DNA of 64,000 bases, taken from contig JBBTWE010000001.1 of the NCBI GenBank assembly GCA_038062955.1, forward strand, positions 320,038 to 384,037, in the 5' to 3' direction. The stretch is from Patescibacteria group bacterium. GTDB lineage: Bacteria; Patescibacteriota; Minisyncoccia; Phycocordibacterales; BOKC01. Positions 7,788 through 63,466 of the stretch are shown here, in pieces. Position 1 is the stretch's first letter; every line of letters begins with the position of its first letter. The position numbers and the translations under genes are program-made. A model generated the notes under the pieces. The model was not told the origin of the DNA. It searched no databases and saw nothing but the letters and a program-made list of their open reading frames with translations.

Positions 7788-7801
7788 ATTGTTAAAATTT
7801 A

Positions 7802-7830
7802 AGATATCAGATTTAAGATTTAAGATTTTT
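7802..7830. repeat. Tandem 9-10-bp ATTTAAGAT repeats in the greA/uvrD intergenic region
   Basis: The same unit recurs at 845..888, 16292..16390, 23164..23194, 24535..24572, 61061..61100 and 63436..63466. Confidence 0.6.
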
Positions 7831-7964
7831 TTGATTTATCTAATTTCTTATTAGTGATTCATTGTATCAAAATATGTAAATAAACGGCACATAATTTAAA
7901 ACCAGCAAAGATTTACCTTGCTGGTTTTAAATTTTTTTCTAATCTCTCCAATATTTTTAATTTT

Positions 7965-8480
7965 CTACTTGATTTCTATTATCTTATATTTAACCGAACC
8001 TTGTGGAGTGTTGAAAGAAAAAATATCACCTTTCTTTTTTCTCAAAATGGCTTGCCCAAATGGAGATTTGTTTGAAACTTTATTTTTACTTATATCAGCT
8101 TCTTCGGAACCAACGATTGTGAAAGTTTGCGGACCATTCCCTTTTTCTTTTTCTACTGTAACCACAGAGCTTACCGCAACTTCTTCGCTGTTATGAGCTC
8201 CTGTTATTTTTGCTGATTTGAGAAGGATCTCAAGTCTTGCAATTCTATCTTCAACGTTAGCCTGATCTCCACGAGCTTCCTGATATTCAGCGTTTTCTGA
8301 TAAATCACCAAGGGAACGAGCGTATTCCAGATGCTCGGCAATTTCTTTCCTTTTAGTTTTTTTGAGATGCTCTAACTCTTTTGTTAATTCACTAAATTTT
8401 TCTTTGGTTAAGTATTCTGTCTCATTCATAAATATATAACTTCCATATTTGGCCAATTTTGTAGTAAAAACTTGTCTCAA
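7965..8480 (-). CDS. greA: Transcription elongation factor GreA
   Basis: The coiled-coil N-domain plus FKBP-like C-domain and the LSENAEY motif are present. Confidence 0.9.
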   Translation of the reverse strand: MRQVFTTKLAKYGSYIFMNETEYLTKEKFSELTKELEHLKKTKRKEIAEHLEYARSLGDLSENAEYQEARGDQANVEDRIARLEILLKSAKITGAHNSEEVAVSSVVTVEKEKGNGPQTFTIVGSEEADISKNKVSNKSPFGQAILRKKKGDIFSFNTPQGSVKYKIIEIK

Positions 8481-8586
8481 ATCTGAAAGTTCTAAATTTC
8501 TATAGTAAATATTATTATAGTAATAAATAAATTGATTTTGAAATATTATACACCAAAACGTTAAAAGTCAATTCTAAATTTTAGAT

Positions 8587-8626
8587 AAAAAAAGCCCGCA
8601 GCGTTGGATCGTGGACAACGCTGCGG
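8587..8626 (-). terminator. Intrinsic terminator ending the minus-strand transcript of GC-rich island 1 (stem ccgcagcgttg/caacgctgcgg followed by a U-run).
   Basis: Hairpin followed by aaaaaaa on the plus strand, which reads as a U-tract on the minus-strand RNA. Confidence 0.6.
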
Positions 8627-9306
8627 ACCGAGGAACCTCTCGAGGTGCTAGACTTGTACGATTGGGGTCAAGGGTTACCAATCGGCACTCATTCGAGGAC
8701 TCCTCTCACACAGAACAGGGAATAAAGGGTGTTCAACCCTTTGATCCGTCTTCGCTCGCGGATCATGAGAATGCCGTCCACAGGTGTCGACAATGATCCT
8801 GTCGACTCATTCTCGCGATGCCGCTCGCTAGCCGGAATAAAAGCCGAGTCCTCAATCCATTCTCATGTGCGCCAGAACTTCTTCCTGTGAAGTCGTTGCC
8901 TACCATTCCACAGGTTGAGGAGAGCAAACAGACGAGGACTCGGATGTTCTTATTGAATGAAAGTGGTCCTTCCGAAGGGAAGCGACTCCAAAATGGCGGT
9001 ACTGGGGATTTCCCCCGGAAGGACAGTGTTCGGTGCTGTGCTGTATGTGAGAGAAAAAGAGCGAATCTGGGGAGTATTATAGATATCAGAGACCAAAAGT
9101 CAATGATTATAGCTGCCTGCCGGCAGGTATAAAAAAGGGGCCCCCATCTGCCGGTCAGAACAGAAGGGGGCCCACGAAACTTGATCCCGAGACCATATTA
9201 TGGAAAGGGCGGTTAGGGAGGGGGGTACTGGTCTCCATCACACAGCCACGGGATCTTCACCAAGAGCAGTCTGTTGAGTATTGTATACCTTAAAAAATAA
9301 AAGTCA
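8595..9306 (-). ncRNA. GC-rich island 1. This is a roughly 700-nt highly structured region with no ORF of 60 aa or longer and no SD on the transcribed (minus) strand. It is a candidate large structured ncRNA or a decayed cassette.
   Basis: The GC content is far above the flanks. Many long-range perfect stems are present (GGTCCTTCCG/CGGAAGGAC, GGGCCCCC/GGGGGCCC, GATCCCGAGACCA/TGGTCT..CGGGATC). It is bounded by the mrdA terminator and by its own terminator. It does not match RNase P, tmRNA or SRP signatures. Confidence 0.35.
8721..8844 (+). repeat. Modular GC-rich repeat, copy A. It consists of module 1 (aaagggtgttcaaccctttgatccgtcttcgctcgcggatcatgagaat), module 2 (ccgtccacaggtgtcgacaatgatcctgtcgac) and module 3 (cattctcgcgatgccgctcgctagccggaataaa).
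   Basis: It matches the copies at 13643..13768 (outer modules inverted, inner module in the same orientation) and 15036..15122 (lacking module 2). Confidence 0.7.
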
Positions 9307-9383
9307 ACCCCGTAGTGAATTTTGGCATAGTTTTCAACGTGTTTAGACCGAAGTCTAAACAATGCCAAAATCTACTACGGGGT
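9307..9383 (+). repeat. Conserved hairpin element with a 22-bp stem, copy 1. The left arm is ACCCCGTAGTGAATTTTGGCAT, the loop is 33 nt and the right arm is ATGCCAAAATCTACTACGGGGT.
   Basis: The arm sequences are identical to the copies at 17739..17803 and 30420..30486. As plus-strand RNA, 21 of 22 positions pair (including one G-U). Confidence 0.8.
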
Positions 9384-9389
9384 CAAGTA

Positions 9390-9426
9390 CAAAAATGGCC
9401 TGCAACGTCACACGACGTCGCAGGCC
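9390..9426 (-). terminator. Intrinsic terminator of the mre-mrdA operon (ggcctgcaacg..cgtcgcaggcc plus a U-run).
   Basis: The hairpin plus T-tract on the minus strand lies immediately 3' of mrdA. Confidence 0.55.
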
Positions 9427-9615
9427 AGGTCTCGAACAGCCCGAGACCACAAAATGTCCTTCTACCATGGTGATCACGAATCAGGAGGAGGAAGACCACC
9501 ACAGGAGGACAGAGCTGGGTACAGAAGAACGAACCTCTGATTATTATTCTAAACAATTGTTGAGAAAAGTCAAACCCCAAATCAGGTATTAGGGAAAAAT
9601 ACACAGGTACAGAGC

Positions 9616-11657: not shown

Positions 11658-11717
11658 GATTCAAGAAAAAATTTTAAAATACAGATTTCTAGAACTTTTA
11701 GATTTGGATACAGACCT

Positions 11718-11800
11718 AGGCGCAAGCGAGGAGCGAACCGAGACGTATTTGACAATACGTTGAGGGAGCACCGGAGCGAAGCAACGACGGTATGTGCCAA
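11718..11800. repeat. Intercistronic structured repeat, type A, copy 2 (ccgagACGTATttgacaATACGTtgagggag...cggagcgaagcaacg), located between mreC and mreD.
   Basis: Homologous to 1540..1625 and 20593..20682. Confidence 0.7.
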
Positions 11801-11814
11801 ATATATAAGTTCTT

Positions 11815-12639
11815 TTATTTTTCGATTGAGACCCAGCGTAACTCTGCTAGATTAACGGGTAACCTAACATAGATTTTCTTGAAAGAGGAAGCGGGACCAT
11901 GCTCAACTTCTTCGACTTTTCCCAATATTTTACTTCTCTCACCTGAAATCGTTATTTCATCTCCAATTTCCACTTTTACTTCTTGAGAAACTGAACCTAC
12001 TAAGTTCCCTCCTCCTCGCCCAATCATTTTAATCGGTAATTTTTGAGAACCTAAAAAAGCTTGGGTTTCAATTCCGCCCGAAGAGAATAATCTTATCTTG
12101 GAAGTTTGAGCTAACACCTGAACCACTTCGCCAAGCAAAATATTTTCGAAAAAAACTTTATTCTCTATTTCTATGTTGGCATTTCTACCGACATCTACTA
12201 TAAAAACGTCGTATGATGTGAGTGGTGGTCGAGCTAAAATAAAAGCCGGTATTGTTGATGTAGCTTCAGTTCTTTCTAAAATTGCCCGAAAAGTTTTATT
12301 TTCTTCCTCCAAAAGATCGAGATCAAATGATTTTGCTCTGCGATGAAGCAGTTCTTCTCTTAACTCAATATTCGTTTTTACTAAACTTTCTCTTGAGTTG
12401 ATCAGAGCTGTAAGGATAGAAAATTTATTCTCAATATAAATTTTTGATTTCCAAAAAGGATAAGCTACTCCACCCGCAATATCCGCAAAAACATTTCGCA
12501 GTGGCTTGGACAAAATTGAGAGAATAAAAATAAATAGGATAATACAAAGAGAGAGCAAAACGATTTTTTTGTAATTTCTTTTATTTTTGCGGCGGTAATT
12601 CATCGTCATTTGCAATGAGAACTTCTTTGTAATACTCAA
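11815..12639 (-). CDS. mreC: Rod shape-determining protein MreC. The real start is probably an internal Met, which would reduce the overlap with mreB.
   Basis: N-terminal TM segment, coiled coil and beta-rich C-domain are present, in the expected position in the operon. Length is 274 aa. Confidence 0.8.
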   Translation of the reverse strand: MSITKKFSLQMTMNYRRKNKRNYKKIVLLSLCIILFIFILSILSKPLRNVFADIAGGVAYPFWKSKIYIENKFSILTALINSRESLVKTNIELREELLHRRAKSFDLDLLEEENKTFRAILERTEATSTIPAFILARPPLTSYDVFIVDVGRNANIEIENKVFFENILLGEVVQVLAQTSKIRLFSSGGIETQAFLGSQKLPIKMIGRGGGNLVGSVSQEVKVEIGDEITISGERSKILGKVEEVEHGPASSFKKIYVRLPVNLAELRWVSIEK

Positions 12640-13642
12640 GATTTTCCAAGATTATTCCAGCGCCTCTCGCCATCGCAGTGAGTGGATCGGGAGCCACAAA
12701 AATAGGAATTTTTAGTGTTTCTTTGAGAACTTCTGGCCATCCGCGAAGCAGTGAACCACCACCAACAAGGTGTATTCCACGTTGCATCACATCAGATAGA
12801 ATCTCTGGAGGTGTCGTTTCTAAGACTTCTTTTACCGCTTCAATCAAAGTGTGGATCGACTGCGAAATCGCTTCCCTTATATCTCCGTCGGTCACCACCA
12901 CTTCTTTGGGCAAACCTGTAACCAAGTCTCGCCCTTTTATTATGGATTCCATTGGCGACTCTGCTATTACCGAGCCGATGGCAATTTTTACGTTTTCCGC
13001 TGTTTTCTCGCCAATTAAAATTTTGAACTCACTCCTGATGTAAGAAATTATATCGGAATTCAGTTTATCGCCGGCAATTTTTAAATTTTTTGATCTGACA
13101 ACTCCACCCAAAGAGATCACTGCGATATCGGTCGTACCGCCACCAATATCAACAATAACACTTCCAACAGGATCCATCACTGGGAGTTTTATTCCGATAG
13201 CCGCCGCCACAGGCTCTTCAACAACATGAACTTCACGAGCGCCGGCGCTCTTTGTTGCATCCCTTACCGCTCGAATTTCAACACTTGTAATACCTGACGG
13301 CACACCCACAACTACTCGGGGACCTAAAAATTTCTTCTTATCTTTTTGAGCTTTATTGATTAAATAGGTAATCATTTCTTCCGTCACTTCGTAATCAGAA
13401 ATCACGCCGTCAACTAGCGGTCTCACAGCTGTAATGTGTGGTGGTGTCCTTCCGAGCATTTTTTTTGCGGCAGTACCAACAGCGACAACCCGACCGGTCT
13501 TTTGATTGATAGCGACAACCGACGGCTCGTTTATTACAATCCCCTTACCTCTTACATACACCAAAGTATTAGCGGTACCGAGGTCGATTCCGATGTCGTT
13601 TGAAAAAAACTGTTTTAATTTTTTGTATAGGTTAGTTGCCAT
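12581..13642 (-). CDS. mreB: Rod shape-determining actin homolog MreB
   Basis: The GIDLGTANTLVY phosphate-1 motif and DIGGGTTD are present. Length is 353 aa. Confidence 0.93.
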   Translation of the reverse strand: MATNLYKKLKQFFSNDIGIDLGTANTLVYVRGKGIVINEPSVVAINQKTGRVVAVGTAAKKMLGRTPPHITAVRPLVDGVISDYEVTEEMITYLINKAQKDKKKFLGPRVVVGVPSGITSVEIRAVRDATKSAGAREVHVVEEPVAAAIGIKLPVMDPVGSVIVDIGGGTTDIAVISLGGVVRSKNLKIAGDKLNSDIISYIRSEFKILIGEKTAENVKIAIGSVIAESPMESIIKGRDLVTGLPKEVVVTDGDIREAISQSIHTLIEAVKEVLETTPPEILSDVMQRGIHLVGGGSLLRGWPEVLKETLKIPIFVAPDPLTAMARGAGIILENLEYYKEVLIANDDELPPQK

Positions 13643-13768
13643 TTTTTATTCCGGCTAGCGAGCGACATCGCGAGAATGTACCGTCTACAGGTGTCGACAA
13701 TGACCCTGTCGACCTCATTCTCATGATGCGCGAACGAAGACGGATCAAAGGGGTTTAATACCCTTTAT
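13643..13768 (-). repeat. Modular GC-rich repeat, copy B. It forms the proS-mreB intercistronic leader and abuts the mreB ATG.
   Basis: It is the reverse complement of copy A in its outer modules (tttattccggctagcgagcg..., ...gacggatcaaaggggtttaataccctttatt), with the GTCGAC module retained in the plus orientation. Confidence 0.7.
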
Positions 13769-15035: not shown

Positions 15036-15122
15036 TGGTATTAACCCTTTGATCCGTCTTCGTTCGCGGATCATGAAAAAGAGTACTTTTTCGCGATTCC
15101 GCTCACTAGCCGGAATAAATAA
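15036..15122 (+). repeat. Modular GC-rich repeat, copy C (modules 1 and 3 only), in the rseP-proS intercistronic region.
   Basis: ggtattaaccctttgatccgtcttcgttcgcggatcatga ... cgattccgctcactagccggaataaa. Confidence 0.65.
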
Positions 15123-15196: not shown

Positions 15197-16291
15197 TTAG
15201 AGTTTAATGATGTCGTGAACAGTAACAACCACCATAAGCAATAAAAGTAGAATGAAACCAAGAGCATTCAAAGTATTTACCACTTTTGGATTAATTCTTT
15301 TTCTTTTTATAGCTTCAATAAGTAAGAATAATAATCTCCCCCCATCAAGCGCTGGGAAAGGAAGTAAATTTATAACGGCCAAATTAAGAGAAATGAAAGC
15401 GGTAAATTGAAGTAGATATATGAATCCCAAATTTGAAGCGTCACCCACCAAACCGACAATTCCGACTGGACCAGTAACCGAAGAAAAATCTGCAGCTCCA
15501 GTAAATATCTGACCCAAAAATTGAAGTAGCCCGATAGTAACTGCCCAAAATACCGAAACGGTGGTTTTTGCTCCTTCCCAGACTGCTAAATGTAGAGGTA
15601 ATTTCAAAATTCCTATCATCGACATGGAAATGCCGATAGCTTTTTTATCTTCAACAATTCCAATCTTTGGTTCAATTTCGTTTTCAATGATTGCATCTCC
15701 GCGTTTTACACTTAAAGAAATTGATCCGTCACTCTCATCTATAAATTTTGAGAAAGTATCAGGATTTATTTCTCCCAAAATTTTATCACCATCTTTCACC
15801 GCAAATATCACATCCCCTGCCTTGATGCCCGAAGCAAGAGCTGGAGAATCAGCCAAAATGGAAGTGATAACCAAGTTGGGATTTTGTAGGGGGCGAACGG
15901 TTGGATTTAGAGGATCAACCGGCGTTGGCAATCCATATACATATCCAAAAGAAATTAAAATCCACGCGAAAACAATGTTAAAAAGAATTCCGGCAACGAT
16001 TACAAGTGCCTGCACAGCTCTCGATTTGTGTGCAAGGCTTCTGCTTGTATCTGTAGATTCTGTTTCGTTTTCATCAGGATTTTCTCCGTAGATTTTAACA
16101 AAACCACCGAAAGGAATAGCGTTTACAGTAAAATCAGTTTCTCCCCATTTAAAAAGTTTAAATAATCTTGGTGGAAAACCGATTCCGAATTCATCCACTC
16201 GGACACCAGACTTTTTTGCAGTTATAAAATGCCCAAATTCATGAACCAATATTAAAACAGCGAGGACAATAATGAATATGAGTATGGACAT
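15197..16291 (-). CDS. rseP: Site-2 zinc metalloprotease RseP (M50 family with a PDZ domain)
   Basis: HEFGHF (HExxH) lies in TM1. A PDZ segment and a C-terminal LDGG motif are present. Confidence 0.88.
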   Translation of the reverse strand: MSILIFIIVLAVLILVHEFGHFITAKKSGVRVDEFGIGFPPRLFKLFKWGETDFTVNAIPFGGFVKIYGENPDENETESTDTSRSLAHKSRAVQALVIVAGILFNIVFAWILISFGYVYGLPTPVDPLNPTVRPLQNPNLVITSILADSPALASGIKAGDVIFAVKDGDKILGEINPDTFSKFIDESDGSISLSVKRGDAIIENEIEPKIGIVEDKKAIGISMSMIGILKLPLHLAVWEGAKTTVSVFWAVTIGLLQFLGQIFTGAADFSSVTGPVGIVGLVGDASNLGFIYLLQFTAFISLNLAVINLLPFPALDGGRLLFLLIEAIKRKRINPKVVNTLNALGFILLLLLMVVVTVHDIIKL

Positions 16292-16390
16292 AAAAGATAT
16301 ACGATTTCAGATTTAAGATATTAGATTTACAAAATTGAGATTTTTAATTTTTTTGAAATCATAAATCATATATCGTAAATCTTAAATTAT
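16292..16390. repeat. Tandem ATTTAAGAT-type repeats upstream of rseP and downstream of frr
   Basis: gatttcagatttaagatattagatttac...aaatcatatatcgtaaatcttaaatta. Confidence 0.55.
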
Positions 16391-16971
16391 TAGGCCATTA
16401 TCTCTTTTTCTTTTTTCTCTGCTAAATCTTCAAGTTTTTTACTTACTTCATCCACGATTTTCTGCATTTCATTCTTGAGTCTAAATTTATCATCCTCGCT
16501 CAAAACGCCGTCTTTTGTTTTTGTCTGAATATCTTCCCAAACTTTTTCACGCTCTCCACGAAGACTCACTTTAGCTTCTTCTAATTTTTGTTTGCTTTGC
16601 TTTATAAGAAGCGTACGCCTCTCGGAAGAAAGATCGGGGAAATTAACCCTTACTCCTTTGTCATCAGACATAACACCTAGACCCAAATTAGCGTCCTGAA
16701 TTGCTTTTTCAATTCCTTTTGCTTGACTCATATCCCAAGGAGCAACCCGAAGGCTCTTTGGTCCTTCAGAAGTAATTGTCGCTAATTGATTGATTGGCAT
16801 TTTCGAACCATAAACTTCAATCTTAACTCCATCGAGCAAAGTAGGTGTTGCTCGGCCAGTTCGAAGAGTCAGGTATTCTTTTTTTAACCACTCTAAAACT
16901 GCATCGGTATTTTGTTTTAAACTCAAAAAATTATATGCCATAGATAGAATGATTTTATACCAGAATGCCAA
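16390..16971 (-). CDS. frr: Ribosome recycling factor. The likely start is the internal Met (MAYNF...).
   Basis: LRTGRATPTLLDGVKIEVYGSKMPINQLA is the characteristic RRF core. Confidence 0.9.
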   Translation of the reverse strand: MAFWYKIILSMAYNFLSLKQNTDAVLEWLKKEYLTLRTGRATPTLLDGVKIEVYGSKMPINQLATITSEGPKSLRVAPWDMSQAKGIEKAIQDANLGLGVMSDDKGVRVNFPDLSSERRTLLIKQSKQKLEEAKVSLRGEREKVWEDIQTKTKDGVLSEDDKFRLKNEMQKIVDEVSKKLEDLAEKKEKEIMA

Positions 16972-17038: not shown

Positions 17039-17042
17039 AGAC

Positions 17043-17477
17043 CTACTGTCTGGGTGAACCGGGGAAACGGAAGCCGGTCATCTTCTCGTACTTTTCCAGA
17101 GCAGGATTATCTGCCTCGGGATGCCTCCAGAACGCAACACCAATTCTCATATTGGGATTCTCGGCCCTAAGTCTCGTGAGATGAGAGAAAAGTGTTTGGA
17201 GCTTGGCACACATCGGGGGATTTTCCACTACGGTCTCATCCCCAAAATCGTGCCAAAGTCCGTCACCAGCCAAATCCCATGCAAATTGTTTGGGGTCGTC
17301 ACTCTCTTCCCAACTAACGATCACGAATCCAGAAAGGCCGTTCCCTTGCTTCTGGATGTCCTCGTAGCCTTTCCGACCTTTCGCGGTCTGGAACATGCAT
17401 TCGAGTCGACAGAACAGACGTTCGTGAGCCGCAATACATAGCTCATGTTCCGACCACTGCAGTTGAAGAACTGGCAT
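17043..17477 (-). CDS. Hypothetical protein, the cargo of GC-rich island 2 (144 aa).
   Basis: The coding segment is GC-rich. It has a strong SD (gggagg-N6-ATG) and its own consensus promoter and terminator. No recognisable domain was found. Confidence 0.5.
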   Translation of the reverse strand: MPVLQLQWSEHELCIAAHERLFCRLECMFQTAKGRKGYEDIQKQGNGLSGFVIVSWEESDDPKQFAWDLAGDGLWHDFGDETVVENPPMCAKLQTLFSHLTRLRAENPNMRIGVAFWRHPEADNPALEKYEKMTGFRFPGSPRQ

Positions 17478-17531
17478 TTAGCCTCCCGTTTGTTGAATGT
17501 TGTGGTTTAGAGTCCAAAAAAGAACAAATTT

Positions 17532-17560
17532 CCTACCTAACATATAACACAAAACACACC
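17532..17560 (-). promoter_or_regulatory. Consensus sigma70 promoter TTGACT-17-TTATAT for the island-2 ORF.
   Basis: The minus strand reads ttgactccgtggtgtgttttgtgttatat. Confidence 0.55.
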
Positions 17561-17564
17561 ACGG

Positions 17565-17593
17565 AGTCAATTGGTTGACTTTTTTTATTAAAG
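17565..17593 (+). promoter_or_regulatory. Consensus sigma70 promoter TTGACT-17-TATATT. It lies back-to-back with the minus-strand promoter and drives a plus-strand transcript of about 130 nt.
   Basis: ttgactttttttattaaagatattatatt. Confidence 0.55.
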
Positions 17594-17599
17594 ATATTA

Positions 17600-17732
17600 T
17601 ATTCTCTCTAAGGAAAGGTGGCGGTATTCGGCAACGTTCTTCAGTCGGAATCATCACCTACCCCAGGGCTCATGTGCACACACTCCTCCTTTGACTGCTG
17701 GTCTGCTTGGTGTGTGCGTGAGCCCTTTTTTT
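17600..17732 (+). ncRNA. Small GC-rich plus-strand transcript of island 2. It may encode a short peptide (GTG start at 17618) and ends at an intrinsic terminator.
   Basis: A promoter lies upstream. The terminator is gggctcatgtgcacacac...gtgtgtgcgtgagccc plus TTTTTTT. The segment shares caacgttc with the island-3 transcript. Confidence 0.4.
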
Positions 17733-17738
17733 ACCCCG

Positions 17739-17803
17739 TAGTGAATTTTGGCATTGTTACTTTTGCAATGGAGTTGTTATGCCAAAATCTACTACGGGGT
17801 TAT
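17739..17803 (+). repeat. Conserved 22-bp-stem hairpin element, copy 2. It sits directly after the island-2 terminator and overlaps the atpC stop codon.
   Basis: The arms are identical to copies 1 and 3. The loop, tgttacttttgcaatggagttgtt, is related to the copy-3 loop (TTGCAA core). Confidence 0.8.
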
Positions 17804-18052: not shown

Positions 18053-18175
18053 TAGAACTTCCAGATTTGAGACAAGTTGTTTGATAAAACTGAGTACCGA
18101 AGCGAGACGTATGTACTTATACGGCGAAGCAAGGAACGGAAGTTTTAGCAAAGAAATTGGCCAAATGTGGAAGTT
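18053..18175. repeat. MITE-like 125-bp element, type B, copy 1, with terminal inverted repeats (TIRs, tagaacttcca / tggaagtt) and an internal CGTATgtacttATACG hairpin. It lies between atpD and atpC.
   Basis: About 90% identical to 26716..26843. Confidence 0.75.
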
Positions 18176-18179
18176 ATAA

Positions 18180-20540: not shown

Positions 20541-20592
20541 AATATTTGTAAACTTTGGGACTTAATAGAATTTAATTAATTTGGATGCAATT

Positions 20593-20682
20593 CGAGGCGC
20601 GAGTGAGAACCGTACCGAGACGTATTTAATAATACGTTGAGGGAGGCTCGGAGCGAAGCAACAAAGAAGTGCGCCGAATTAA
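20593..20682. repeat. Intercistronic structured repeat, type A, copy 3, between atpA and atpG.
   Basis: ggcgcgagtgagaaccgtaCCGAGacgtatttaataatacgttgagggaggCTCGGagcgaagcaac. Confidence 0.7.
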
Positions 20683-20688
20683 CAAATT

Positions 20689-22212
20689 CTATTTAAAATA
20701 TTTCTTGAAATCTGAAATAATCGTTTTAATCTTTTCATCAATCTTCGCTGTAATCTCGGCAGTCTCTCGAAGTTCTTTCAAGACCTCTGCATGTCTTTCA
20801 TTCATAAATTCTAAGAGTTTCTTTTCAAACAAAGAGACTGACGCAAGAGGCACGTCATCAATATAACCATTTACTCCGGCATATAGAGAAATAACCTGCT
20901 TTTCAAATGGCATACTCTCATATTGTGGCTGTTTCAATAATTCAACCAATCGTTGTCCACGATTAATCTTTTTTTGAGTTGCTTGATCGAGTTCCTGACC
21001 AAACTGCGCAAAAGCCGCAAGTTCTCTAAATTGGGCGAGTTCAAGCCTCAAAGTACCCGCAACTTTTTTCATAGCTTTTGTCTGGGCCGATGAACCGACA
21101 CGCGACACTGAAAGTCCGACGTTGATAGCTGGTCTTATTCCCTGATAGAAAAGTTCGGGTTCAAGATAAATTTGCCCGTCAGTAATGGAAATAACGTTTG
21201 TTGGCACATAAGCTGAAATATCTCCGAGTTGAGTTTCAATAATTGGGAGCGCAGTAAGAGATCCTCCTCCAAATTCTTTACTTAATCTCGCCGCTCTTTC
21301 AAGAAGTCTTGAGTGAAGATAGAAAATATCTCCAGGATAAGCTTCGCGGCCAGGAGGGCGTCGCAGAAGAAGAGAAACTTGTCTGTATGCCCAAGCGTGC
21401 TTCGAAAGATCATCGTAAATTACGAGAGCGTCCTTTCCTTTATCCATAAAATATTCACCGATAGCACATCCAGCATAAGGAGCTAAATATTGGAGGGACG
21501 CAGGAGAAGCGGCGCCAGCAACAACCACGACCGTGTAATCCATTGCTCCAGACTTTTTTAATTGTTCGACAATGTGAGCAACTTTTGATTCTTTTTGACC
21601 AATCGCAACATAAATACAGATCGGAGTGCCATTTCGAACATCATTTTTCTGATTGATGATTGTATCGATAACGATTGCGGTTTTTCCGGTCTGACGATCA
21701 CCAATAATAAGCTCACGCTGACCTCGGCCGATTGGAATCACCGCGTCAATTGCCTTAATACCAGTTTGAAGTGGCACTTTTACCGATTCTCTGGTTATAA
21801 CTCCTGGAGCAACTTTTTCGAGTGGATAGTGCTCAACTTTATTTTTATCAAATGCTTTTCCTCCATCAATTGGTTCGCCAAGTGGATTGATTACTCTACC
21901 CAAAAGTTCCGAGCCAACGGGAATCGAAAGAATGCGGCCGGTTCCCTTTACTCTCTGTCCTTCAATAACTTTGGTTGAATCTCCGAGAATAATCGCGCCG
22001 ATCGTGTCTTCTTCAAGGTTCAATGCAAGCCCGGTTACTTTTTCGCTTTCTTTTTCGTTTTCAAATTCCAAAATTTCAGAAGACTTTACTCCAGATAATC
22101 CTCGGATGATTGCGACCCCATCCCCCACGCGTAAAACTTCGCCGACATTGCTAACAGACGGACTGCCTTTAATGCCAGAAATTTCTTTTTTTAATTGTTG
22201 TAAAATATCCAT
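20689..22212 (-). CDS. atpA: ATP synthase F1 alpha subunit
   Basis: Walker A (GDRQTGKT) is present. Length is 507 aa. Confidence 0.95.
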
Positions 22213-23708: not shown

Positions 23709-24524
23709 TTAATGGCTTTCCTCGTGTGCCGTCGTAGCAGCTCCAAGAAACATTATTGTAAGAACTGTGAAGATTAAAGCTTGAATGAAACCAACGAAAA
23801 TTTCAAGGCCCAAAAATGGAATCGGAGCGATATAAGGCACAAGGAATGCAATGATGACGAGAAGCACTTCCCCAGCAAAGACGTTACCGAAAAGTCGGAA
23901 AGAGAAAGAGATAATTTTTGCAATTTCGCTCACAAACTCCAAAAGCCCTACAAAAAATTTTATTGGGCTTTTAAAACTAAAAAACTTGCCGATATGATCT
24001 CGAACGCCAATTGTTACGAGCCCAACAATATGACTCATGGTTACAATGATAAGCGCGAGCGCGAGAGTCATGTTGAGATCAGAGTTAACCGAACGAAGAA
24101 GAGGCACGAATGATTCCTGCGGTTCTTCAGTTTCTCCTTTCGTGACCTCTGTCACAATCTCACCTTTATTTTCTGCATGGATTGGTGCTTCTTCAACATG
24201 AGTAAATCCTATACTTCCTACTCCTGGCAAAATTCCAATCCAGTTAGCACAAAGAATAAAGATAAAAATTGTAGCCGCAACCGGGAAAAACTTTCGTACA
24301 ACCTCTTTGCTTCCGGCAATTGTTTCTAAAAAATCAGCAAGTTTGGTAATAATAACTTCAGTAATGCTCTGCAACTTACCAGGAATTTCTTTTATGTTTC
24401 GAGAAATAATTATTGAAATAATTATCAAAAAAACCATCACCACCCACGAGGTAAGAAGTGTGTTTGTAACTGGTATTCCGAGAAAGGTAAATAATATTTC
24501 TGGAGCAATTGAGACGTGAACCAT
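23709..24524 (-). CDS. atpB: ATP synthase Fo a subunit
   Basis: FRLFGNVFAGE carries the conserved Arg of the a subunit. The protein is polytopic. Confidence 0.9.
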   Translation of the reverse strand: MVHVSIAPEILFTFLGIPVTNTLLTSWVVMVFLIIISIIISRNIKEIPGKLQSITEVIITKLADFLETIAGSKEVVRKFFPVAATIFIFILCANWIGILPGVGSIGFTHVEEAPIHAENKGEIVTEVTKGETEEPQESFVPLLRSVNSDLNMTLALALIIVTMSHIVGLVTIGVRDHIGKFFSFKSPIKFFVGLLEFVSEIAKIISFSFRLFGNVFAGEVLLVIIAFLVPYIAPIPFLGLEIFVGFIQALIFTVLTIMFLGAATTAHEESH

Positions 24525-24602
24525 AGAGTTAAAGGATTTATGATTTAAGATTTATGATTTAAGATTTCTAATTCATGAACCTTGAATTTACTTCTTAAAC
24601 TT

Positions 24603-26715: not shown

Positions 26716-26843
26716 GGTAGAACTTTCAGATTTGAGACAAGTTGTTTGATAAAACTGAGCACTGTAGCGAGACGTATTTAATAATACGGCGAGTGAAGAG
26801 CGGAAGTTTTAGCAAAGAAATTGGCCAAATATGGAAGTTCTAC
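26716..26843. repeat. MITE-like 125-bp element, type B, copy 2, between holB and mreB-2. Its right TIR overlaps the mreB-2 stop codon.
   Basis: ggtagaactttcagatttgagacaagttgtttgataaaactgag...gaagttttagcaaagaaattggccaaatatggaagttctac. Confidence 0.75.
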
Positions 26844-29600: not shown

Positions 29601-29650
29601 TATAAAAAAAGAGCCCCTGCAGAAACGTTCCTGCAAGGGACTCCGAGACG
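29601..29650. terminator. Bidirectional intrinsic terminator between the convergent murA and island-3 ORFs.
   Basis: gagcccctgcag..ctgcaagggactc is flanked by an A-run on one side and a T-run on the other. Confidence 0.5.
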
Positions 29651-29651
29651 A

Positions 29652-30077
29652 TCAGCTTCTGGCGCGTTCTCTTTCGAATGCCCAGTTCACCTTCGGCACT
29701 GCCGCACGAAAGAAGTCGTCGATCTTGACCTCAAAGTCAACGCCAACATCGTCGTAACCAGCTGGTGCAAGCTTGCGGATCAGTGGTCTTGCAACCTCCA
29801 GTTGAGATGTGCCAGCTGGTGCCACCCACACTTCACCCTCGCGAGTGACGATCGCGTCCACACAGACCCGAGCATCATCATCTTGATGATCTTGAAGAGT
29901 GAGAACCGCCTCGCATGAATGGCCGAGAAGATCCCCGAGCTGACTACCAACCCAGAAAGCATCCCCGACAGGACGATGGGGATAGAGTCCTGTGATGTTC
30001 ACGAAACCGACATCGCGCAGCTTACGCTGCATTCTACCCGAAAGTGTCATAGAAGAACTACCTTTAGTCCGAAACAC
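29652..30077 (-). CDS. Hypothetical protein, the cargo of GC-rich island 3. The likely start is the internal ATG at 30050 (aaagg SD).
   Basis: The ORF is GC-rich. It has its own promoter (TTGACA-16-TATACT) and terminator. Confidence 0.5.
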   Translation of the reverse strand: MFRTKGSSSMTLSGRMQRKLRDVGFVNITGLYPHRPVGDAFWVGSQLGDLLGHSCEAVLTLQDHQDDDARVCVDAIVTREGEVWVAPAGTSQLEVARPLIRKLAPAGYDDVGVDFEVKIDDFFRAAVPKVNWAFERERARS

Positions 30078-30117
30078 ATGCTCGGGATGAGCAAGCTCTT
30101 ACGGACTGTCTGCAATA

Positions 30118-30145
30118 AGTATACATATTTTATCTATTTTGTCAA
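30118..30145 (-). promoter_or_regulatory. Consensus sigma70 promoter TTGACA-16-TATACT for the island-3 ORF.
   Basis: The minus strand reads ttgacaaaatagataaaatatgtatact. Confidence 0.55.
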
Positions 30146-30170
30146 ACGAAAATTCGACTTGATTTTGAGT

Positions 30171-30199
30171 TTGGTGCACAAACTGACTTGTGGTATATT
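30171..30199 (+). promoter_or_regulatory. Divergent plus-strand promoter (TTGGTG-17-TGg-TATATT, extended -10) driving the island-3 small transcript.
   Basis: ttggtgcacaaactgacttgtggtatatt. Confidence 0.45.
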
Positions 30200-30205
30200 T
30201 TTGCA

Positions 30206-30420
30206 AGAAGCAGGTCGTCTAACGTAGCACAACGCCACAGGACGATCTGTGCCGAACAACGTTCGCAGGAGGACACATGCGCAAGATGAAGCTCTCCAGC
30301 TGATACGACAAGAAGTCGGCCCGTTGTGGAGAACCTTTGAGCCGAAAGAGAACTGTAGGCTCGATGGAACTTCTAACACTCACCCGTTGTGTCCCCCAAA
30401 GGACATGACGGGTGTTTTTT
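30206..30420 (+). ncRNA. Small GC-rich plus-strand transcript of island 3. It contains an SD plus an 8-codon ORF (AGGAGG-N5-ATG MRKMKLSS) and ends at an intrinsic terminator.
   Basis: The terminator is cacccgttgtgtcc..ggacatgacgggtg plus TTTTTT and lies immediately before hairpin copy 3. Confidence 0.4.
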
Positions 30421-30486
30421 ACCCCGTAGTGAATTTTGGCATCGTTGCCTTGCAACAGAGTTGCTATGCCAAAATCTACTACGGGG
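30420..30486 (+). repeat. Conserved 22-bp-stem hairpin element, copy 3, followed by T8.
   Basis: accccgtagtgaattttggcat-cgttgccttgcaacagagttgct-atgccaaaatctactacggggt. Confidence 0.8.
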
Positions 30487-34191: not shown

Positions 34192-34554
34192 CTATTTAAT
34201 GTTCTTAAGAGTATTTTTTACCTTTGCCCCACTTTTTTTATCAAGAGTCGTTTTTTTGGTTTTAAACTTTAAAAGTTCTTCTTTAATTTCATCTTTAGCC
34301 TCGTCAATTGCCGCATAAATATCATCTTTTTCGGCAGAAGCATACAGCACCTGGCCCAGTGTCTGAATTTTAATTTCAGCTCTGAAAATGTCCCCGTTTT
34401 TATGATGTTTTGTTGTTCGCCCCACCTCAATTTCACAAAGCGCCCCAGTATCTTTTTTGCTTACAAGTTTTGTAATTGACTCGATTTTTTTATTTACGTA
34501 ATTGGAGACATTCTCCACGAGCTCCATATTTGTCGCTTTGATATTTATTTTCAT
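34192..34554 (-). CDS. hpf: Ribosome hibernation promoting factor / RaiA family
   Basis: A 120-aa protein. The N-terminus MKINIKATNMELVENVSNYV and the beta-alpha-beta-beta-beta-alpha fold pattern fit this family. Confidence 0.85.
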   Translation of the reverse strand: MKINIKATNMELVENVSNYVNKKIESITKLVSKKDTGALCEIEVGRTTKHHKNGDIFRAEIKIQTLGQVLYASAEKDDIYAAIDEAKDEIKEELLKFKTKKTTLDKKSGAKVKNTLKNIK

Positions 34555-34555
34555 C

Positions 34556-34672
34556 CCGTACGAAGTAGGACACGGACAAAATAAATTATCCTGAACCTAC
34601 TTTAAATTAAGTAATAAAATATTAACTCTTAGATAAATAATCCCGCTGGGTGTCCGTGACTTCGTACGGGAT
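34556..34672 (-). promoter_or_regulatory. hpf 5' leader. A 20-bp inverted repeat (cccgtacgaagt..cacggaca / tgtccgtg..acttcgtacggg) brackets an AT-rich loop of about 75 nt. The 3' arm ends exactly at the AUG and there is no SD.
   Basis: Seen directly in the sequence. The CCCGTACGAAGT arm resembles the CCCGTAGTGAA arm of the hairpin family. Confidence 0.4.
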
Positions 34673-34721
34673 TCATCCCTATATTATAACAAAAGGAGAA
34701 TATTTACGAAATATATCAAAA

Positions 34722-34781: not shown

Positions 34782-35303
34782 CTAAACAAAGTTTCCTTGT
34801 TTGCTTAGAGTACGAAACACTATCCCCGTCCAGATTGAAATTAATCCAAACAATAAGATTAACCCCGAGAAAACGTAAGTTAAAATTCCTAAATTAAGAG
34901 CGGTATTTAATGTTGTAGCGGTTATCCAAATATCACGAGCGGTGTTTGAAACCATAACAGGCTTACCTTCTGCGTCCAAAACCGGCAAACCATTTTCAAG
35001 TTTTGGAATTTGTCTTGGCATTTCAGAAAATGTTTTTCCGCCCGTTGATTCGAGAGTATGTTTTCTAATTATATCTACCTGTGCTTTGAGTGTGAACGGT
35101 CCCCTGACCTCTACTTTTGAAATAGTAGCGTCTTCTGGTGTCACAATTTTTTCCTGCGCTATATTTTGATAAGTAAAACAAATACCCCATATTCCACCTG
35201 CTACCAAAATAACTCCTGCAATGATTGCTAATAAAGATGAGACTTTTAGTAATTTTTTCATCCCGTAGTGAAATTTCAGGTCGTCCCGTAGTGAAAACTT
35301 CAC
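34782..35303 (-). CDS. Hypothetical membrane protein with two TM segments. The likely start is MKKLLKV at 35261.
   Basis: N- and C-terminal TM helices flank an extracytoplasmic domain. Confidence 0.55.
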   Translation of the reverse strand: MKFSLRDDLKFHYGMKKLLKVSSLLAIIAGVILVAGGIWGICFTYQNIAQEKIVTPEDATISKVEVRGPFTLKAQVDIIRKHTLESTGGKTFSEMPRQIPKLENGLPVLDAEGKPVMVSNTARDIWITATTLNTALNLGILTYVFSGLILLFGLISIWTGIVFRTLSKQGNFV

Positions 35304-35317
35304 TTCTACTACAGGAC
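35268..35317 (+). repeat. Degenerate copy of the hairpin family (cccgtagtgaaatttcagg..cccgtagtgaaaacttcacttctactacagga). It lacks the TTTTGGCAT/ATGCCAAAA core and abuts the start of the membrane protein gene.
   Basis: It shares CCCGTAGTGAA and TCTACTAC with the full copies. Confidence 0.45.
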
Positions 35318-45376: not shown

Positions 45377-45610
45377 CATAAATTTATTTCTTCTTTTTCT
45401 TTACCCCCCCTACCAAAAACGCCTTTGGTGTGGGAGTTTATATTACTCGTCTCCTCCAAAAAAGCGTTTAAGTCTGATTCTTTGATCCGCCAAACACCGA
45501 CATAAAATTGCTTTAAGGGTTGATACCATTTTACCCCTTCTTAAATTCATTGTCGAAATCGCCGTCTTTTGTCATAAAAGAAAAATGTCGGCTTTCATTG
45601 ATATTTGCCT

Positions 45611-45655
45611 CCGCGGGTAGCCTGCCTGCCGGCAGGGAGTTTCTCTCTCTACGAG
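45611..45655. repeat. A 45-bp element (ctccgcgggtagcctgcctgccggcagggagtttctctct), the left member of an inverted pair with 49219..49262.
   Basis: The reverse complement matches 49219..49262 except for a 4-nt indel. The core is the CTGCCGGCAG palindrome. Confidence 0.65.
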
Positions 45656-45980
45656 AGCAGTATAGGTTTCCCATTTTTTCGGATTTAACATCCTCAAAAA
45701 TATGGGAGAACCTTTTCGAATCCTACCTCGCAAGCAAAATTATTTGCTTGCTCGCGAGTAGGAATTTCTTTCATTACATGAACAGTATACCTTTTGGCTA
45801 AAATTTTCATCCTCGACAAACTTGGATTCAATTTTAGGCTCAAAAGCTTTTCGAATCCTAACGAAGGTGCTATTCAAAGCACCTTCTCCCGCAGAAGCCA
45901 CAAATGACAAAATCCACCGAAAAGGTGGATTTGTGTCAGTGGCTCCGCGGGTAGGATTCGAACCTACGACCAATCGCTTA

Positions 45981-46535
45981 CATTTGTTCCAAAGTTGCCT
46001 TTGGCATGGACTATATCATCATCCTTCATCGGCTGTTTGCAGATGGATGGGATGTGAGGCGCTTCGACTGAATTTTTCAGGCTACTCTCTTTCGAGATAG
46101 TCTCTGAACCTTCCTGCTGATTAGCAGGCTTGGCTGCTGATTGCCCACGTGGGGTTTCCAGCAATTCACCTCATTTTTCATCCTAAATTCCTTTAGGAAG
46201 CTGCGTGATGCCGTCATGTATTTCCATGTGACAATTTGCACAAACGAGTACGCACTTCTTAATTTCCTCTTCGATTTTGGCCCAGGAACGTGTTATGCCT
46301 CCAGAAGCAAGATCGAATTTCTTTGTAGATGGATCGATATGGTGGAAACTAAGAGATCGTTGGCATTTTTTGTAACCACATATAAAACATTTACTGCCTT
46401 TCGTTGCTCTAGCCATTTCACGAAGTTTTCTTCTTCTTCGTTTTACAGCTTCTCGCATGTACTCGGCACGGTCGGCATAGGTTCTTTTTTCTTTCCTGGT
46501 ATACATTAATAAAGTATACCACAGAACCTTCTGAC
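45981..46535 (-). mobile_element. Group I intron (within the anticodon loop of the tRNA) carrying an HNH homing-endonuclease ORF.
   Basis: P7 strands GACUA / UAGUC (cagAGACTAtc ... atATAGTCc), GNRA-capped hairpins (tctcGAAAgaga, ccaaagGCAActttgg), a terminal omega-G and the HNH ORF are all present. Confidence 0.7.
46183..46506 (-). CDS. HNH homing endonuclease (intron-encoded)
   Basis: CFICGYKKC...SFHHIDP...N...CANCHMEIH is the C-x2-C/HH/N/C-x2-C-H HNH signature. Confidence 0.8.
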   Translation of the reverse strand: MYTRKEKRTYADRAEYMREAVKRRRRKLREMARATKGSKCFICGYKKCQRSLSFHHIDPSTKKFDLASGGITRSWAKIEEEIKKCVLVCANCHMEIHDGITQLPKGI

Positions 46536-46645: not shown

Positions 46646-47707
46646 CTATCTGCAAGAGGTTCTTCCTCCATCCAAATCATATTCCATCTTCAACCAATCA
46701 AAGTTTAACTCATTTGCTTTGTTGCAAAATTCCTTTGATTGCAATTCATATTCTACTCCAAAAACTGCTTTGTTTTGTGCAATGAATGGTAAAAGAGTTT
46801 CGCATTCATCATATTCAAAACATTGTTCATTCAAAGCAAAATCAAAATAACCAACCAATTCAGGAATTTGCTCTAGATCATTTTTCAAACCAACAGTTAA
46901 TCCTCTTTTATGAGCTTCTTCTGCAAGCCATTTATTATAAGCCAATTGGTGTTGATAGGTTAAAGCAAATCCATTATTGTTCAAATAACCATCCACATTA
47001 TCTGGCTCAACACCATCGCACCCCTTTTTTACCGCTAAATCCAATCTGTTTTTCATAATCGGTGCAATCAAGTCAATTTTGGAAATATCAAGCCATTTCT
47101 CATCCTCCCATCCTTCAAGAGTTCTTCCCTTAACCTCATTTGGAAAATCATCCTCGTCGATTCTCCAATCTTCATAACTTCCAGCACTAAAATAGCAAAT
47201 AACCTTGATACCTTTATTTTGCAATGCATTTATTGCCTCTTTTGAATTATCAAATAAGTCCACATCGTACATGTCAACAACATAGTTTGGATTTAGTGTT
47301 CCCATCAATTGCCATTGCCACGATGTATTTGGATTTGGTTTCCACCAATTAGTATTTTCTAGACTTTCATTGCTTTTAGTAGTTTGTACTTCTTTGAGCT
47401 CTGGTTTGTTTACTTTTGTAGCCTCTATGTTTGAAATATTTTGTTCTGTTGCTTCGTTTATAGTTGTTTTAGATAGTTCTGTTTTTGGGGCCAAAGCAAT
47501 GGTTTCAGATTCTTCTGAATTTGTTGCAATATCTTCTGTTAGCTCAAAGTCTGTAGCTATGTTTGATAGTTGTACTGTGGTAGTTTCCGGAGTCCCCTCT
47601 ATTAATTTTTTCTTATCGTCTGTTTGTTTTATGTTAGCGAAAACGATTGTGCTAACCGCAGCGACGGCCAACACCAATAAAATAATTTTCAGAACTTTTC
47701 TTTTCAT
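46646..47707 (-). CDS. Secreted glycoside hydrolase family 114 (endo-alpha-1,4-polygalactosaminidase / PelA-like) protein
   Basis: A signal peptide is present. The motifs WQWQL, CYFSAGSYEDWR, GWEDEKWLDI and GCDGVEPDNVDGY are GH114 signatures. Confidence 0.75.
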   Translation of the reverse strand: MKRKVLKIILLVLAVAAVSTIVFANIKQTDDKKKLIEGTPETTTVQLSNIATDFELTEDIATNSEESETIALAPKTELSKTTINEATEQNISNIEATKVNKPELKEVQTTKSNESLENTNWWKPNPNTSWQWQLMGTLNPNYVVDMYDVDLFDNSKEAINALQNKGIKVICYFSAGSYEDWRIDEDDFPNEVKGRTLEGWEDEKWLDISKIDLIAPIMKNRLDLAVKKGCDGVEPDNVDGYLNNNGFALTYQHQLAYNKWLAEEAHKRGLTVGLKNDLEQIPELVGYFDFALNEQCFEYDECETLLPFIAQNKAVFGVEYELQSKEFCNKANELNFDWLKMEYDLDGGRTSCR

Positions 47708-49127: not shown

Positions 49128-49218
49128 GGTCACTTTCTTTTTTCTCAAGATGTCAATACTACTTTGAGAAACTTCTTTTGAAAAAATGGGAAATCTATAC
49201 TGTTCTCGTAGAGAGAAA

Positions 49219-49262
49219 CTCCCTGCCTGCCGGCAGGCAGGCTACCCGCGGAGTCTACAAAC
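49219..49262. repeat. A 45-bp element, the right member of the inverted pair with 45611..45655.
   Basis: agagaaactccctgcctgccggcaggcaggctacccgcggag. Confidence 0.65.
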
Positions 49263-60976: not shown

Positions 60977-61261
60977 GTTTGTTTAGCTGTATTTTACAAC
61001 TTTTGGCGTAAAAAGTCATAATTCAAGCCAACAAAGTTAGAAATTTGATCTAAATTAAAAAATCTTAAATCTTAAATCCTATATCTTAAATCTCATTTGG
61101 GGGTTGACTTTTATGTGGATATAGATTAAGCTTGTAGCACAAAAGTTAATCGTCTCAAGTAAAGTCGATTTAGAGCATTATATTTTTGTACTTATTAGGT
61201 TAAGCACAGGTTTTCCAAAAATCGCATTATATGCGACCAAGGAAGGCCTAAAAGCAATTTC

Positions 61262-62658: not shown

Positions 62659-63255
62659 CCCGTCTACAGGTGTCGACGCCTAACCCGTCGACCCCTCGTT
62701 GTTTGTTCTCACTGATTCGTGAATCACTCTCGTGAGTCTGATGGAGATCTCCAATCCCAATCACCCGGACCGAAATGAAAATCCCACTTCTGTTCCTTCT
62801 GATTCCACCGCAGTTTTGGTAGCCGCTTACCATTCACCATCGTTGATACTTGTCCTGGGAACGCGATTGTTCCTGGTATGGACAGATCAGGCTGTTCCTC
62901 CATCAGTTTGAGCATTTCTGCAGACCCAGCCGAACGACAACGCCACAACTTCATCAGCAACCTGTACCGCCTCATCGTCATGGGGACAGGAAGGCAGAAA
63001 CAGAGGAGCGCGCCGAGCTTCGTGGGACGATAGGCCTTCTGCCGCAACACCTTGCCGAGGAGATACGCCTTGAGCACCCAAAGCACATCGAGGACGAATC
63101 CGCGCACGGCACTGACACGATCACCGAACGAAAGGTTCTTGTTCTTCACGGTCTGTTCTCCTATCGAGGTTGAATTTCTGTTTTTGTGACTTAGCGAAAT
63201 TGCTTTGCCACAGCAGGAGACGGGTCGACGGGTTGGGCGTCGACACCTGTAGACG
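62659..63255. mobile_element. MITE/IS-like GC-rich element of about 600 bp, bounded by 35-bp near-perfect terminal inverted repeats (ccgtctacaggtgtcgacgcc[t/c]aacccgtcgaccc). It contains one GTG-start ORF.
   Basis: The TIRs are at 62659..62693 and 63221..63255 (34 of 35 positions match). The same GTCGAC-N9-GTCGAC motif occurs in the modular repeat copies A and B. Hairpins flank each TIR. Confidence 0.6.
62724..63149 (-). CDS. Hypothetical protein inside the TIR-bounded element (GTG start with a taggaga SD)
   Basis: ORF track plus the SD. The protein is Arg/Trp-rich. Coding status is uncertain. Confidence 0.3.
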   Translation of the reverse strand: MKNKNLSFGDRVSAVRGFVLDVLWVLKAYLLGKVLRQKAYRPTKLGALLCFCLPVPMTMRRYRLLMKLWRCRSAGSAEMLKLMEEQPDLSIPGTIAFPGQVSTMVNGKRLPKLRWNQKEQKWDFHFGPGDWDWRSPSDSRE

Positions 63256-63466
63256 GCCCTCCTCCTGCTGTGGCAAAAACGTTGTAAATCAGTGAGTTTT
63301 TAATGAACAATTTTCTGTGTCCAGTATACACCCATTCGTGTATTTTGTCAAGCACAAATTGTATATAACAAATAGACGGCTAGGAACAAGGGTGTTTTAA
63401 TACATAGGCCGAGCCTATGTATGATGATTTTATTCTTGAATCGTGAATCATAAATCTTGAATCTGA

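Follow-up and report, generated by a model that had tools for sequence, protein, structure and literature searches.

Bacterial MITEs, of which the Correia elements of Neisseria are an example, have terminal inverted repeats, short duplications and many intergenic copies, and insertions of the Correia type are often located beside promoters and gene ends. GIY-YIG nucleases are encoded by free-standing homing endonuclease genes of the I-TevI and Seg type. The Ssn proteins are single-domain GIY-YIG nucleases of about 94 amino acids that cut only single-stranded DNA, on one strand, beside a hairpin repeat (Chenal et al. 2025, PMC11893778). Copies of this repeat, the NTS or Ssn-related motif, stand on both sides of the nuclease gene, and hundreds of further copies have no gene (PMC11893778). 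The same authors stated that the layout resembles an insertion sequence and likened the repeats to REP-like and IS200/IS605 palindromes; cutting of single-stranded DNA was shown for the nucleases, transposition was not (PMC11893778). The words Patescibacteria, Parcubacteria and candidate phyla do not occur in the main text of that article, and those of its sections consulted here contain no target duplications, empty sites or gene-boundary placement (PMC11893778). No description of a hairpin/GIY-YIG element family of Patescibacteria was found in the literature, and a literature search with the sequence word of the element returned primers only.

Hairpins of one family were found in a 64-kb stretch of Patescibacteria DNA, the whole of which is called the window here (39% G+C). 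By exact protein matches the window was assigned to a contig of 704 kb from Hainich groundwater (GCA_964363395.1, CAYIIC010000001.1). Three copies are intact and two are variants (Table 1). We consider it probable that these hairpins are non-autonomous, gene-less, MITE-like miniatures of a palindromic mobile element widespread in Patescibacteria, the full-length kin of which carry a nuclease gene. This interpretation draws on the family itself, the flanking duplications, filled and empty versions of the same sites, nuclease-bearing relatives and an enrichment at gene boundaries. The anatomy of the element comprises a terminal C-G or T-A pair, the foot CCCGTAGT, a tandem G.T/A.C, about 8-10 covarying pairs and a variable interior.

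Table 1. Hairpin elements of the window and the sites adjoining them.
Feature	Position	Strand	Remarks
Left direct repeat TCAA at copy 1	9304-9307		4 bp
Promoter-like site TTGACT-16-TACAAT	9280-9307	-	10/12 matches
Copy 1 of the miniature palindromic element	9308-9382	+	75 nt; 3′ arm from 9362
Right direct repeat TCAA at copy 1	9383-9386		4 bp
Left direct repeat TTA at copy 2	17731-17733		3 bp
Copy 2 of the miniature element	17734-17799	+	66 nt; exactly at the atpC stop codon; 3′ arm from 17779
Right direct repeat TTA at copy 2	17800-17802	-	TAA on the minus strand, used as the atpC stop
Copy 3 of the miniature element	30422-30486	+	65 nt; 3′ arm from 30466
Sister-subfamily element at the hpf start codon	34554-34671	+	118 nt
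Direct repeat TTCA (minus-strand TGAA) at the hpf element	34550-34553 and 34672-34675		4 bp
Degenerate composite copy	35261-35316	+	left terminus T+CCCGTAGTGAAATTTCAGG

The 21-nt 5′ arm CCCCGTAGTGAATTTTGGCAT, with which each intact copy begins on the plus strand, and its near-complement ATGCCAAAATCTACTACGGGG are identical in copies 1 to 3, and the three copies have the same orientation. The arm pattern gave no match in the dinucleotide-shuffled window, and as single-stranded DNA the three copies folded much more stably than shuffles (z = −7 to −11). Copy 1 has a terminal C-G pair and the foot CCCGTAGTGAA / TCTACTACGGG. Its stem measures 21 bp, stem positions 10-11 being occupied by a tandem G.T + A.C, and the 33-nt loop holds an inner 8-bp hairpin. 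The loops of copies 2 and 3 are 24 and 23 nt long and have TTGCAA in common. The original prediction of a sequence-conserved hairpin family with variable loops, a shared TTGCAA and an 8-bp hairpin in the first loop was thus borne out; its start coordinates were 2-5 nt off for copies 2 and 3. In a whole-window repeat scan, the similarity between the three copies ended within about 7 nt of flank. The copies are therefore not pieces of one longer duplication, and the duplication of whole islands, which had been named as a trivial source of the identity, does not account for it.

Many other short dispersed repeat families were seen in the repeat scan of the window. Two intergenic families with a length of about 120-125 nt occupy gaps between housekeeping genes, such as that between atpD and atpC, and have 72-93% identity between copies (18053-18178, 26718-26842 and, inverted, 8435-8496 for the one; 1526-1646, 11703-11823 and 20580-20700 for the other). 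A GC-rich module of about 110 nt with GTCGAC-type palindromes is present in both orientations (8735-8842, 13642-13752, 15043-15122, 62660-62697 and 63219-63256), and AATCTTA-like heptamer arrays, again in both orientations, are located at gene ends (846-894, 7794-7831, 16287-16405, 24519-24573, 61048-61096 and 63427-63467). A second palindrome family, CCTGCCTGCCGGCAGGCAGG, was found at positions 9112, 25976, 35401, 45621 and 49222 of the window. Inverted repeats of 72 nt at 45609-45680 and 49180-49253 begin with a sequence resembling a tRNA 3′ end, CTCCGCGGGTAG, and contain this palindrome. The 3.5-kb segment between them carries a tRNA gene with a group I intron (45940-46290, minus strand), a GH114 glycoside hydrolase gene (46646-47707, minus strand) and a 451-aa ORF without Pfam match. 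RF00028 of Rfam scored 78 bits for the intron (45988-46271, minus strand), and the 3′ half of the tRNA lies at 45940-45975; ARAGORN called no tRNA in the whole window. The segment may be integrated or invertible.

For copies 2 and 3 a position immediately after intrinsic terminators had been predicted. A terminator-like hairpin (30381-30414) has copy 3 within its T-run; T6 stands directly before the copy, the predicted T8 follows it, and priA begins 48 nt downstream. A long hairpin with T7 was seen by eye before copy 2, where the terminator scan made no call. In the family as a whole a position after terminators is not a general property. The hairpins themselves were also considered as intrinsic terminators and rejected, as a T-run follows copy 3 only, copy 2 leads into A-rich sequence in the direction of atpC, and the family has no orientation bias.

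An A-run and a long GC-rich hairpin stand directly after atpC in the window (17650-17730, minus strand) and in two relatives (L211, 1035-1090; L212, 1845-1930). In the window and the relatives this hairpin encloses AAGGAGG and a mini-ORF of 7-10 codons, and the genes downstream may have in it their leader or attenuator. GC-rich islands with 50-55% G+C against 39% for the genome extend over 8500-9600, 17040-17730 and 29650-30420, and include minus-strand ORFs of 144 aa (17043-17477) and 141 aa (29652-30077). Pfam gave no matches for the ORFs of the islands. The 144-aa ORF is kept beside atpC in relatives that lack the hairpin.

A genome-wide pattern search had been proposed with the original prediction. 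The family scan was carried out on one genome per species with the pattern CCCGTAGTRRA-N25-55-TYYACTACGGG, in which only the foot is fixed, and the orientations of flanking genes were counted. The hairpin foot CCCGTAGTGAA...TCTACTACGGG was recovered at no fewer than 114 loci. Among the loci listed, 99 carried the labels of Patescibacteria lineages, including Saccharibacteria, Paceibacterota/Parcubacteria and Nomura-, Nealson-, Wolfe-, Vogel-, Kaiser- and Zambryskibacteria, 8 had no phylum label and 7 had other labels. Within the last group, three Frigoribacterium and two planctomycete matches look like unrelated perfect palindromes. Several genomes had three to six loci each among the matches listed. 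At L066, L090, L104 and L107 the element is nested in another palindrome, CACTACCCGGCCTGC ... GCAGGCCGGGTAGTG, and tandem and nested copies of the element were also noted at L002, L011, L058, L083 and L113.

The pattern permitted 16 combinations at its two variable positions, and GA in one arm with AG in the other was found in 105 of 121 instances, which indicates that the tandem G.T/A.C is conserved. Above the foot the stem extends as far as position 20-21 or so. Small inner hairpins, one or two in number, are present in most copies. Positions 13-20 formed Watson-Crick pairs in 78-97% of 114 distinct copies, compared with 31-87% when the 3′ arms were shuffled among copies; at position 17 the pairs were GC (53), CG (23), TA (18) and AT (5). 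The check for covariation, likewise proposed earlier, thus showed that the upper stem covaries.

The arms were nearly identical across many species-level genomes and the loops differed, which suggests sequence-specific recognition. Such identity of the arms could reflect selection for a host function. The hairpins would in that case be domesticated target sites of an Ssn-type nuclease with a use for the host, for instance in that they mark incoming single-stranded DNA or restrict it during natural transformation, and a precedent is given by the Ssn/NTS system, for which this was proposed for the NTS repeats of Neisseria in the sections of the article consulted (PMC11893778). We regard this as rather unlikely. 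The copies in the window are not clustered around particular gene classes, and the precise recent insertions described below, together with the decayed copy at the end of Table 1, look like turnover of an element. A present role as nuclease target sites in the host is compatible with a mobile origin. For the copies in the window, the absence of a dedicated cellular function is most likely.

The flanks outside the terminal C-G or T-A pair form a direct repeat. Among 138 miniature copies, 67% had a perfect direct repeat of at least 3 bp, and one third had no perfect flanking repeat; when the flanks were shuffled, 8% had such a repeat. The modal length was 4 bp, and TCAA/TTGA, CAAG/CTTG, TGGA and TATG were the commonest repeats. 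The corresponding fraction for gene-bearing elements was 87% of 55, mostly with TATG, TGGA, TGAA or ATGA. In the window, the flanking repeat of copy 3 is imperfect (TTA / TTT).

Three pairs of filled and empty sites show precise insertions, and two of them involve elements of the window. Copy 2 is situated between two TAA triplets at the end of atpC. In the relative L211, the atpC of which is 87% identical, a single TAA is followed by the same A-run and hairpin, and the element is absent. The hpf element has the termini CCCGTACGAAGT / ACTTCGTACGGG and a terminal T-A pair, and on the minus strand its terminal base supplies the A of the ATG of hpf. Together with the second TGAA it makes an exact insertion of 122 nt relative to L204, L205 and L206, which have ATGAA once at hpf and read ...TATAAT..ATGAAAATAAAT; the hpf protein of L204 is 93% identical to that of the window. 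The third pair consists of L043, where a 67-nt copy stands between two TGGA repeats at a gene start, and its empty counterpart L084, where the gene begins GTGGAAAA and has no element. The gene order around copy 3 differs in the one relative recovered. In a further relative, L208, the hairpin is absent and the adjacent ORF of the GC-rich island (145 aa) is retained, so that hairpin and island are independent. The palindrome CCTGCCTGCCGGCAGGCAGG is also present at positions 3233-3260 of L208 and just after atpC in L212 and L213; in relatives it thus stands behind the atpC stop codon at the place taken by copy 2 in the window.

The left terminus of the degenerate copy adjoins the minus-strand ATG (35261-35259) of a gene for a membrane protein. 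A 31-nt mini-hairpin, CCCGTAGTGAAAACTTCACTTCTACTACAGG, comes after this terminus, and a matching right end is absent from 35261-35316. Both this copy and the related element at hpf had been predicted to exist directly upstream of start codons that lack an SD, and both adjoin start codons of minus-strand genes. The missing SD is explained by the insertion of the elements exactly at these start codons.

Three classes of placement are represented in the window: a −35 box (copy 1), a stop codon (copy 2, at atpC) and start codons (the hpf element and the copy at 35261). The repeat to the left of copy 1 reads TTGA on the minus strand, the first four bases of the −35 hexamer, and the −35 box of the promoter-like site adjoins the copy and overlaps the duplicated TTGA. 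The same classes were counted in 118 distinct miniature copies, with positions 40-180 nt away from the copies as controls. The immediate neighbour was an ORF start codon in 18% of the copies (ORFs of at least 60 aa), a TTGAC(A/T) hexamer in 20% and a stop codon in 9%; the combined figure was 44%, against 7.5% for the control positions. Elements insert with a target duplication of 3-4 bp and would survive mainly at start codons (ATG / TGRA), stop codons (TAA) and −35 boxes (TTGA). Insertion at such gene punctuation would cost little because the duplication regenerates the signal beside its gene.

A 303-nt version with the same termini was found at L063, and its loop contains an 85-aa GIY-YIG ORF (PF01541, E = 8.6e-18). 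A metagenome scan with this protein gave 386 relatives, of which 80 loci were kept. Both termini were scored in at least 42 of the 80 with up to two mismatches allowed, and were recognized by eye in nearly all. Full-length elements measure about 300-320 nt, and their interior is a single-domain GIY-YIG gene of 85-100 aa; the GIY-YIG proteins of the elements range from 85 to 103 aa and match PF01541 only. The left terminus lies about 26 nt before the nuclease ATG and the right terminus 11-33 nt past its stop. Both GA/AG polarities occur among the gene-bearing elements, and the foot shows compensatory changes (CCGG..CCGG, CCTG..CAGG, CTAG..CTAG and CGGG..CCCG). A protein search returned 612 clusters of the element GIY-YIG family, and the named clusters belong to Patescibacteria.

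The ORF of the host starts 0-2 nt past the right end in 35 of 49 distinct gene-bearing elements. In about one third of those at start codons, the terminal A of the element makes a new ATG. Fusion of the host start codon in frame to the nuclease was considered and rejected, as the two were in frame in 4 of 40 cases. Protein recognition or recent mobility had been offered as the reason for conservation at the sequence level, and both fit the target-site duplications, the empty sites and the GIY-YIG-bearing relatives.

Neither tblastn nor the family profile detected a GIY-YIG gene in the 64-kb window, and no gene-bearing element with the exact arms of the window (…GAATTTTGGCAT) was found. It may be that the window copies are relics, or that a more distant paralogue acts on them. 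The GIY-YIG gene could also be a passenger and not the mobilising enzyme. The main rival explanation is built on this: the hairpins would be ordinary MITEs moved by a conventional transposase, for example of the DDE type, encoded elsewhere, with the GIY-YIG gene as cargo. It would fit the terminal inverted repeats, the 3-4 bp duplications, the small size and the many copies, as well as a window that has no nuclease gene. However, the sole coding partner seen within the termini was GIY-YIG, in 49 distinct elements; it lies at fixed distances from both ends, and protein and termini diverge together. GIY-YIG homologues elsewhere are framed by hairpin repeats of their own, as described in the sections of the Ssn article consulted (PMC11893778). 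Conserved pairing, a conserved mismatch and strand-biased triloops would not be expected of duplex termini bound by a DDE enzyme. We therefore find this explanation improbable and prefer miniatures of a nuclease-bearing element.

The irregularity of the stem bears on the strand that is recognized. The original prediction assigned the better pairing to the plus strand, and took the hairpins to function as plus-strand RNA or as single-stranded DNA of that strand. On the opposite strand the tandem G.T + A.C becomes C.A + T.G, so that each strand has one wobble and one mismatch. DNA folds of the two strands were equally stable (−27.4/−26.8 kcal/mol for copy 1, −18.5/−19.4 for copy 2 and −22.4/−23.3 for copy 3). 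With the element read from GTGAA to TCTAC, the count for flanking genes was 26 co-oriented, 21 anti-oriented, 21 divergent and 6 convergent cases, which gives no strand preference with respect to transcription. The claim of better plus-strand pairing was not upheld, and with symmetrical pairing and 26 co-oriented against 21 anti-oriented copies the function derived from it found no support.

A structured RNA made from the plus-strand transcript, either a cis-regulatory element or a small RNA, would agree with the covarying stem, the well-formed inner hairpins and the position of some copies in 5′ leaders or directly after genes. Nevertheless it is very unlikely in view of the equal stability and lack of orientation preference just described and of the target duplications, empty sites and gene-bearing versions. 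No family of Rfam rose above noise for the hairpins at gathering or permissive thresholds, the permissive scan giving only generic hairpin (microRNA) models far below their thresholds. The inner loops were also considered as RNA UUCG tetraloops, which was rejected because they are mostly TTC/GAA triloops closed by C-G.

Read from GTGAA to TCTAC, the inner triloops were C-TTC-G in 16 cases and C-GAA-G in 1. This bias of 16:1 puts d(C-GAA-G) on the complementary strand, and d(C-GAA-G) is an unusually stable DNA mini-hairpin loop. It may also hint at cutting of one strand beside the hairpin, as in Ssn. The exception is copy 1, the inner loop of which reads CGAA on the plus strand. The triloop bias and the Ssn precedent favour recognition as folded single-stranded DNA, which would be that of the strand opposite to the one originally chosen.

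Folded single strands are also handled by Y1 (HUH) transposases, and the hairpins might be REP-like or IS200/IS605 miniatures. They are imperfect palindromes with a conserved irregularity and are dispersed between genes, and the analogy was drawn by the Ssn authors for their own repeats, in the sections of the article consulted (PMC11893778). We give this explanation hardly any credence, as target duplications are present whereas the IS200/IS605 family makes none, and the associated gene encodes a GIY-YIG nuclease, not a Y1 transposase. Identity with integron attC sites (RYYYAAC / GTTRRRY foot) was rejected too: the foot is CCCGTAGT and its flanks vary, and the copies are solitary between housekeeping genes and not in cassette arrays.

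For the preferred mobile element with its miniatures, the following mode of action is suggested. The GIY-YIG protein would recognize the folded single-stranded hairpin, with the foot and the mismatch as putative marks of identity and polarity, and would mobilise full-length and miniature copies in trans. An argument against this is that target duplications would not be expected from a single-strand mechanism like that of IS200/IS605.

The protein of the elements was 38% identical to a GIY-YIG protein of Rhizobium (45 bits in pairwise comparison), and matches to solved UPF0213 structures were weaker for both proteins (31 and 23.5 bits). These scores bear indirectly on a possible place of the element protein in the CDD family cd10448. 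A search with the element protein found GIY-YIG genes on plasmids of Rhizobium and Azospirillum. These genes have canonical Ssn-related motifs, CGTCATCCCCGCGAAGGCGGGGATCCAG, on both sides in inverted orientation. Judging from these protein comparisons, the GIY-YIG gene of the elements is related to the Ssn single-strand-specific nucleases. The published motif HGTCWYN(0-2)YYVSBRHN(0-5)WNVSBRGN(0-2)RNCYNB had no match in the window, and the Rhizobium and Azospirillum controls matched.

A broader proposal, which we advance only tentatively, is that Ssn-type GIY-YIG proteins might be the transposases of an unrecognised class of insertion elements. Such elements would be single palindromes, would act as folded single-stranded DNA or cruciforms, and would make 3-4 bp duplications that rebuild start, stop or −35 signals; the Patescibacteria family would then supply the first direct footprints of their movement. 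The duplications and empty sites are evidence of movement, at the level of sequence, for a nuclease-plus-hairpin module of the Ssn kind. A common unannotated hairpin of the tiny Patescibacteria genomes would be explained, as would genes that seem to have no ribosome-binding site, where the element lies between leader and ATG. In annotation, insertions of about 65-120 nt create false ORF extensions and shifted start codons. For work on single-strand-specific cutting, the family would provide a large natural set of pairs of nuclease and hairpin target.

Among known systems, the REP/BIME-RAYT and IS200/IS605 systems share with the Patescibacteria family dispersed imperfect palindromes; a small nuclease, the gene of which lies between two of them, probably recognizes these in the form of folded single-stranded DNA. 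They differ in the enzyme, which is a Y1 HUH protein and not GIY-YIG, and in the target duplication, which is present in the Patescibacteria family. Homing endonuclease genes of the I-TevI and Seg type are similar in that a small selfish GIY-YIG gene is located between host genes. The Patescibacteria protein, in contrast, has no separate DNA-binding domain, and the element has terminal palindromes, target duplications, many unrelated sites per genome and gene-less derivatives.

Terminal inverted repeats, a short non-coding sequence, multiple copies, target duplications and empty sites in relatives are features in common with MITEs. The partner with the same foot encodes a GIY-YIG nuclease without a demonstrated role as transposase, and no recognised transposase is carried by the coding relative. 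The Patescibacteria miniatures also differ from MITEs in that the whole element is a single stem-loop, in which pairs covary, an internal mismatch is conserved and the triloops are strand-biased.

The Ssn system, as described in the consulted sections of PMC11893778, resembles the family in having a single-domain GIY-YIG protein of about 90 aa, which in our case is found in the elements of relatives outside the window. The gene is framed by inverted hairpin-forming repeats in both, and many gene-less intergenic copies of a repeat with polarity accompany it. In the layout of Ssn two self-contained hairpins of 20-50 nt flank the gene, whereas the Patescibacteria termini pair together in one long stem around it. 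The hairpin sequence of the window lies outside the published consensus, and the Patescibacteria family is distinguished further by its 3-4 bp duplications, its empty sites and its placement at gene boundaries.
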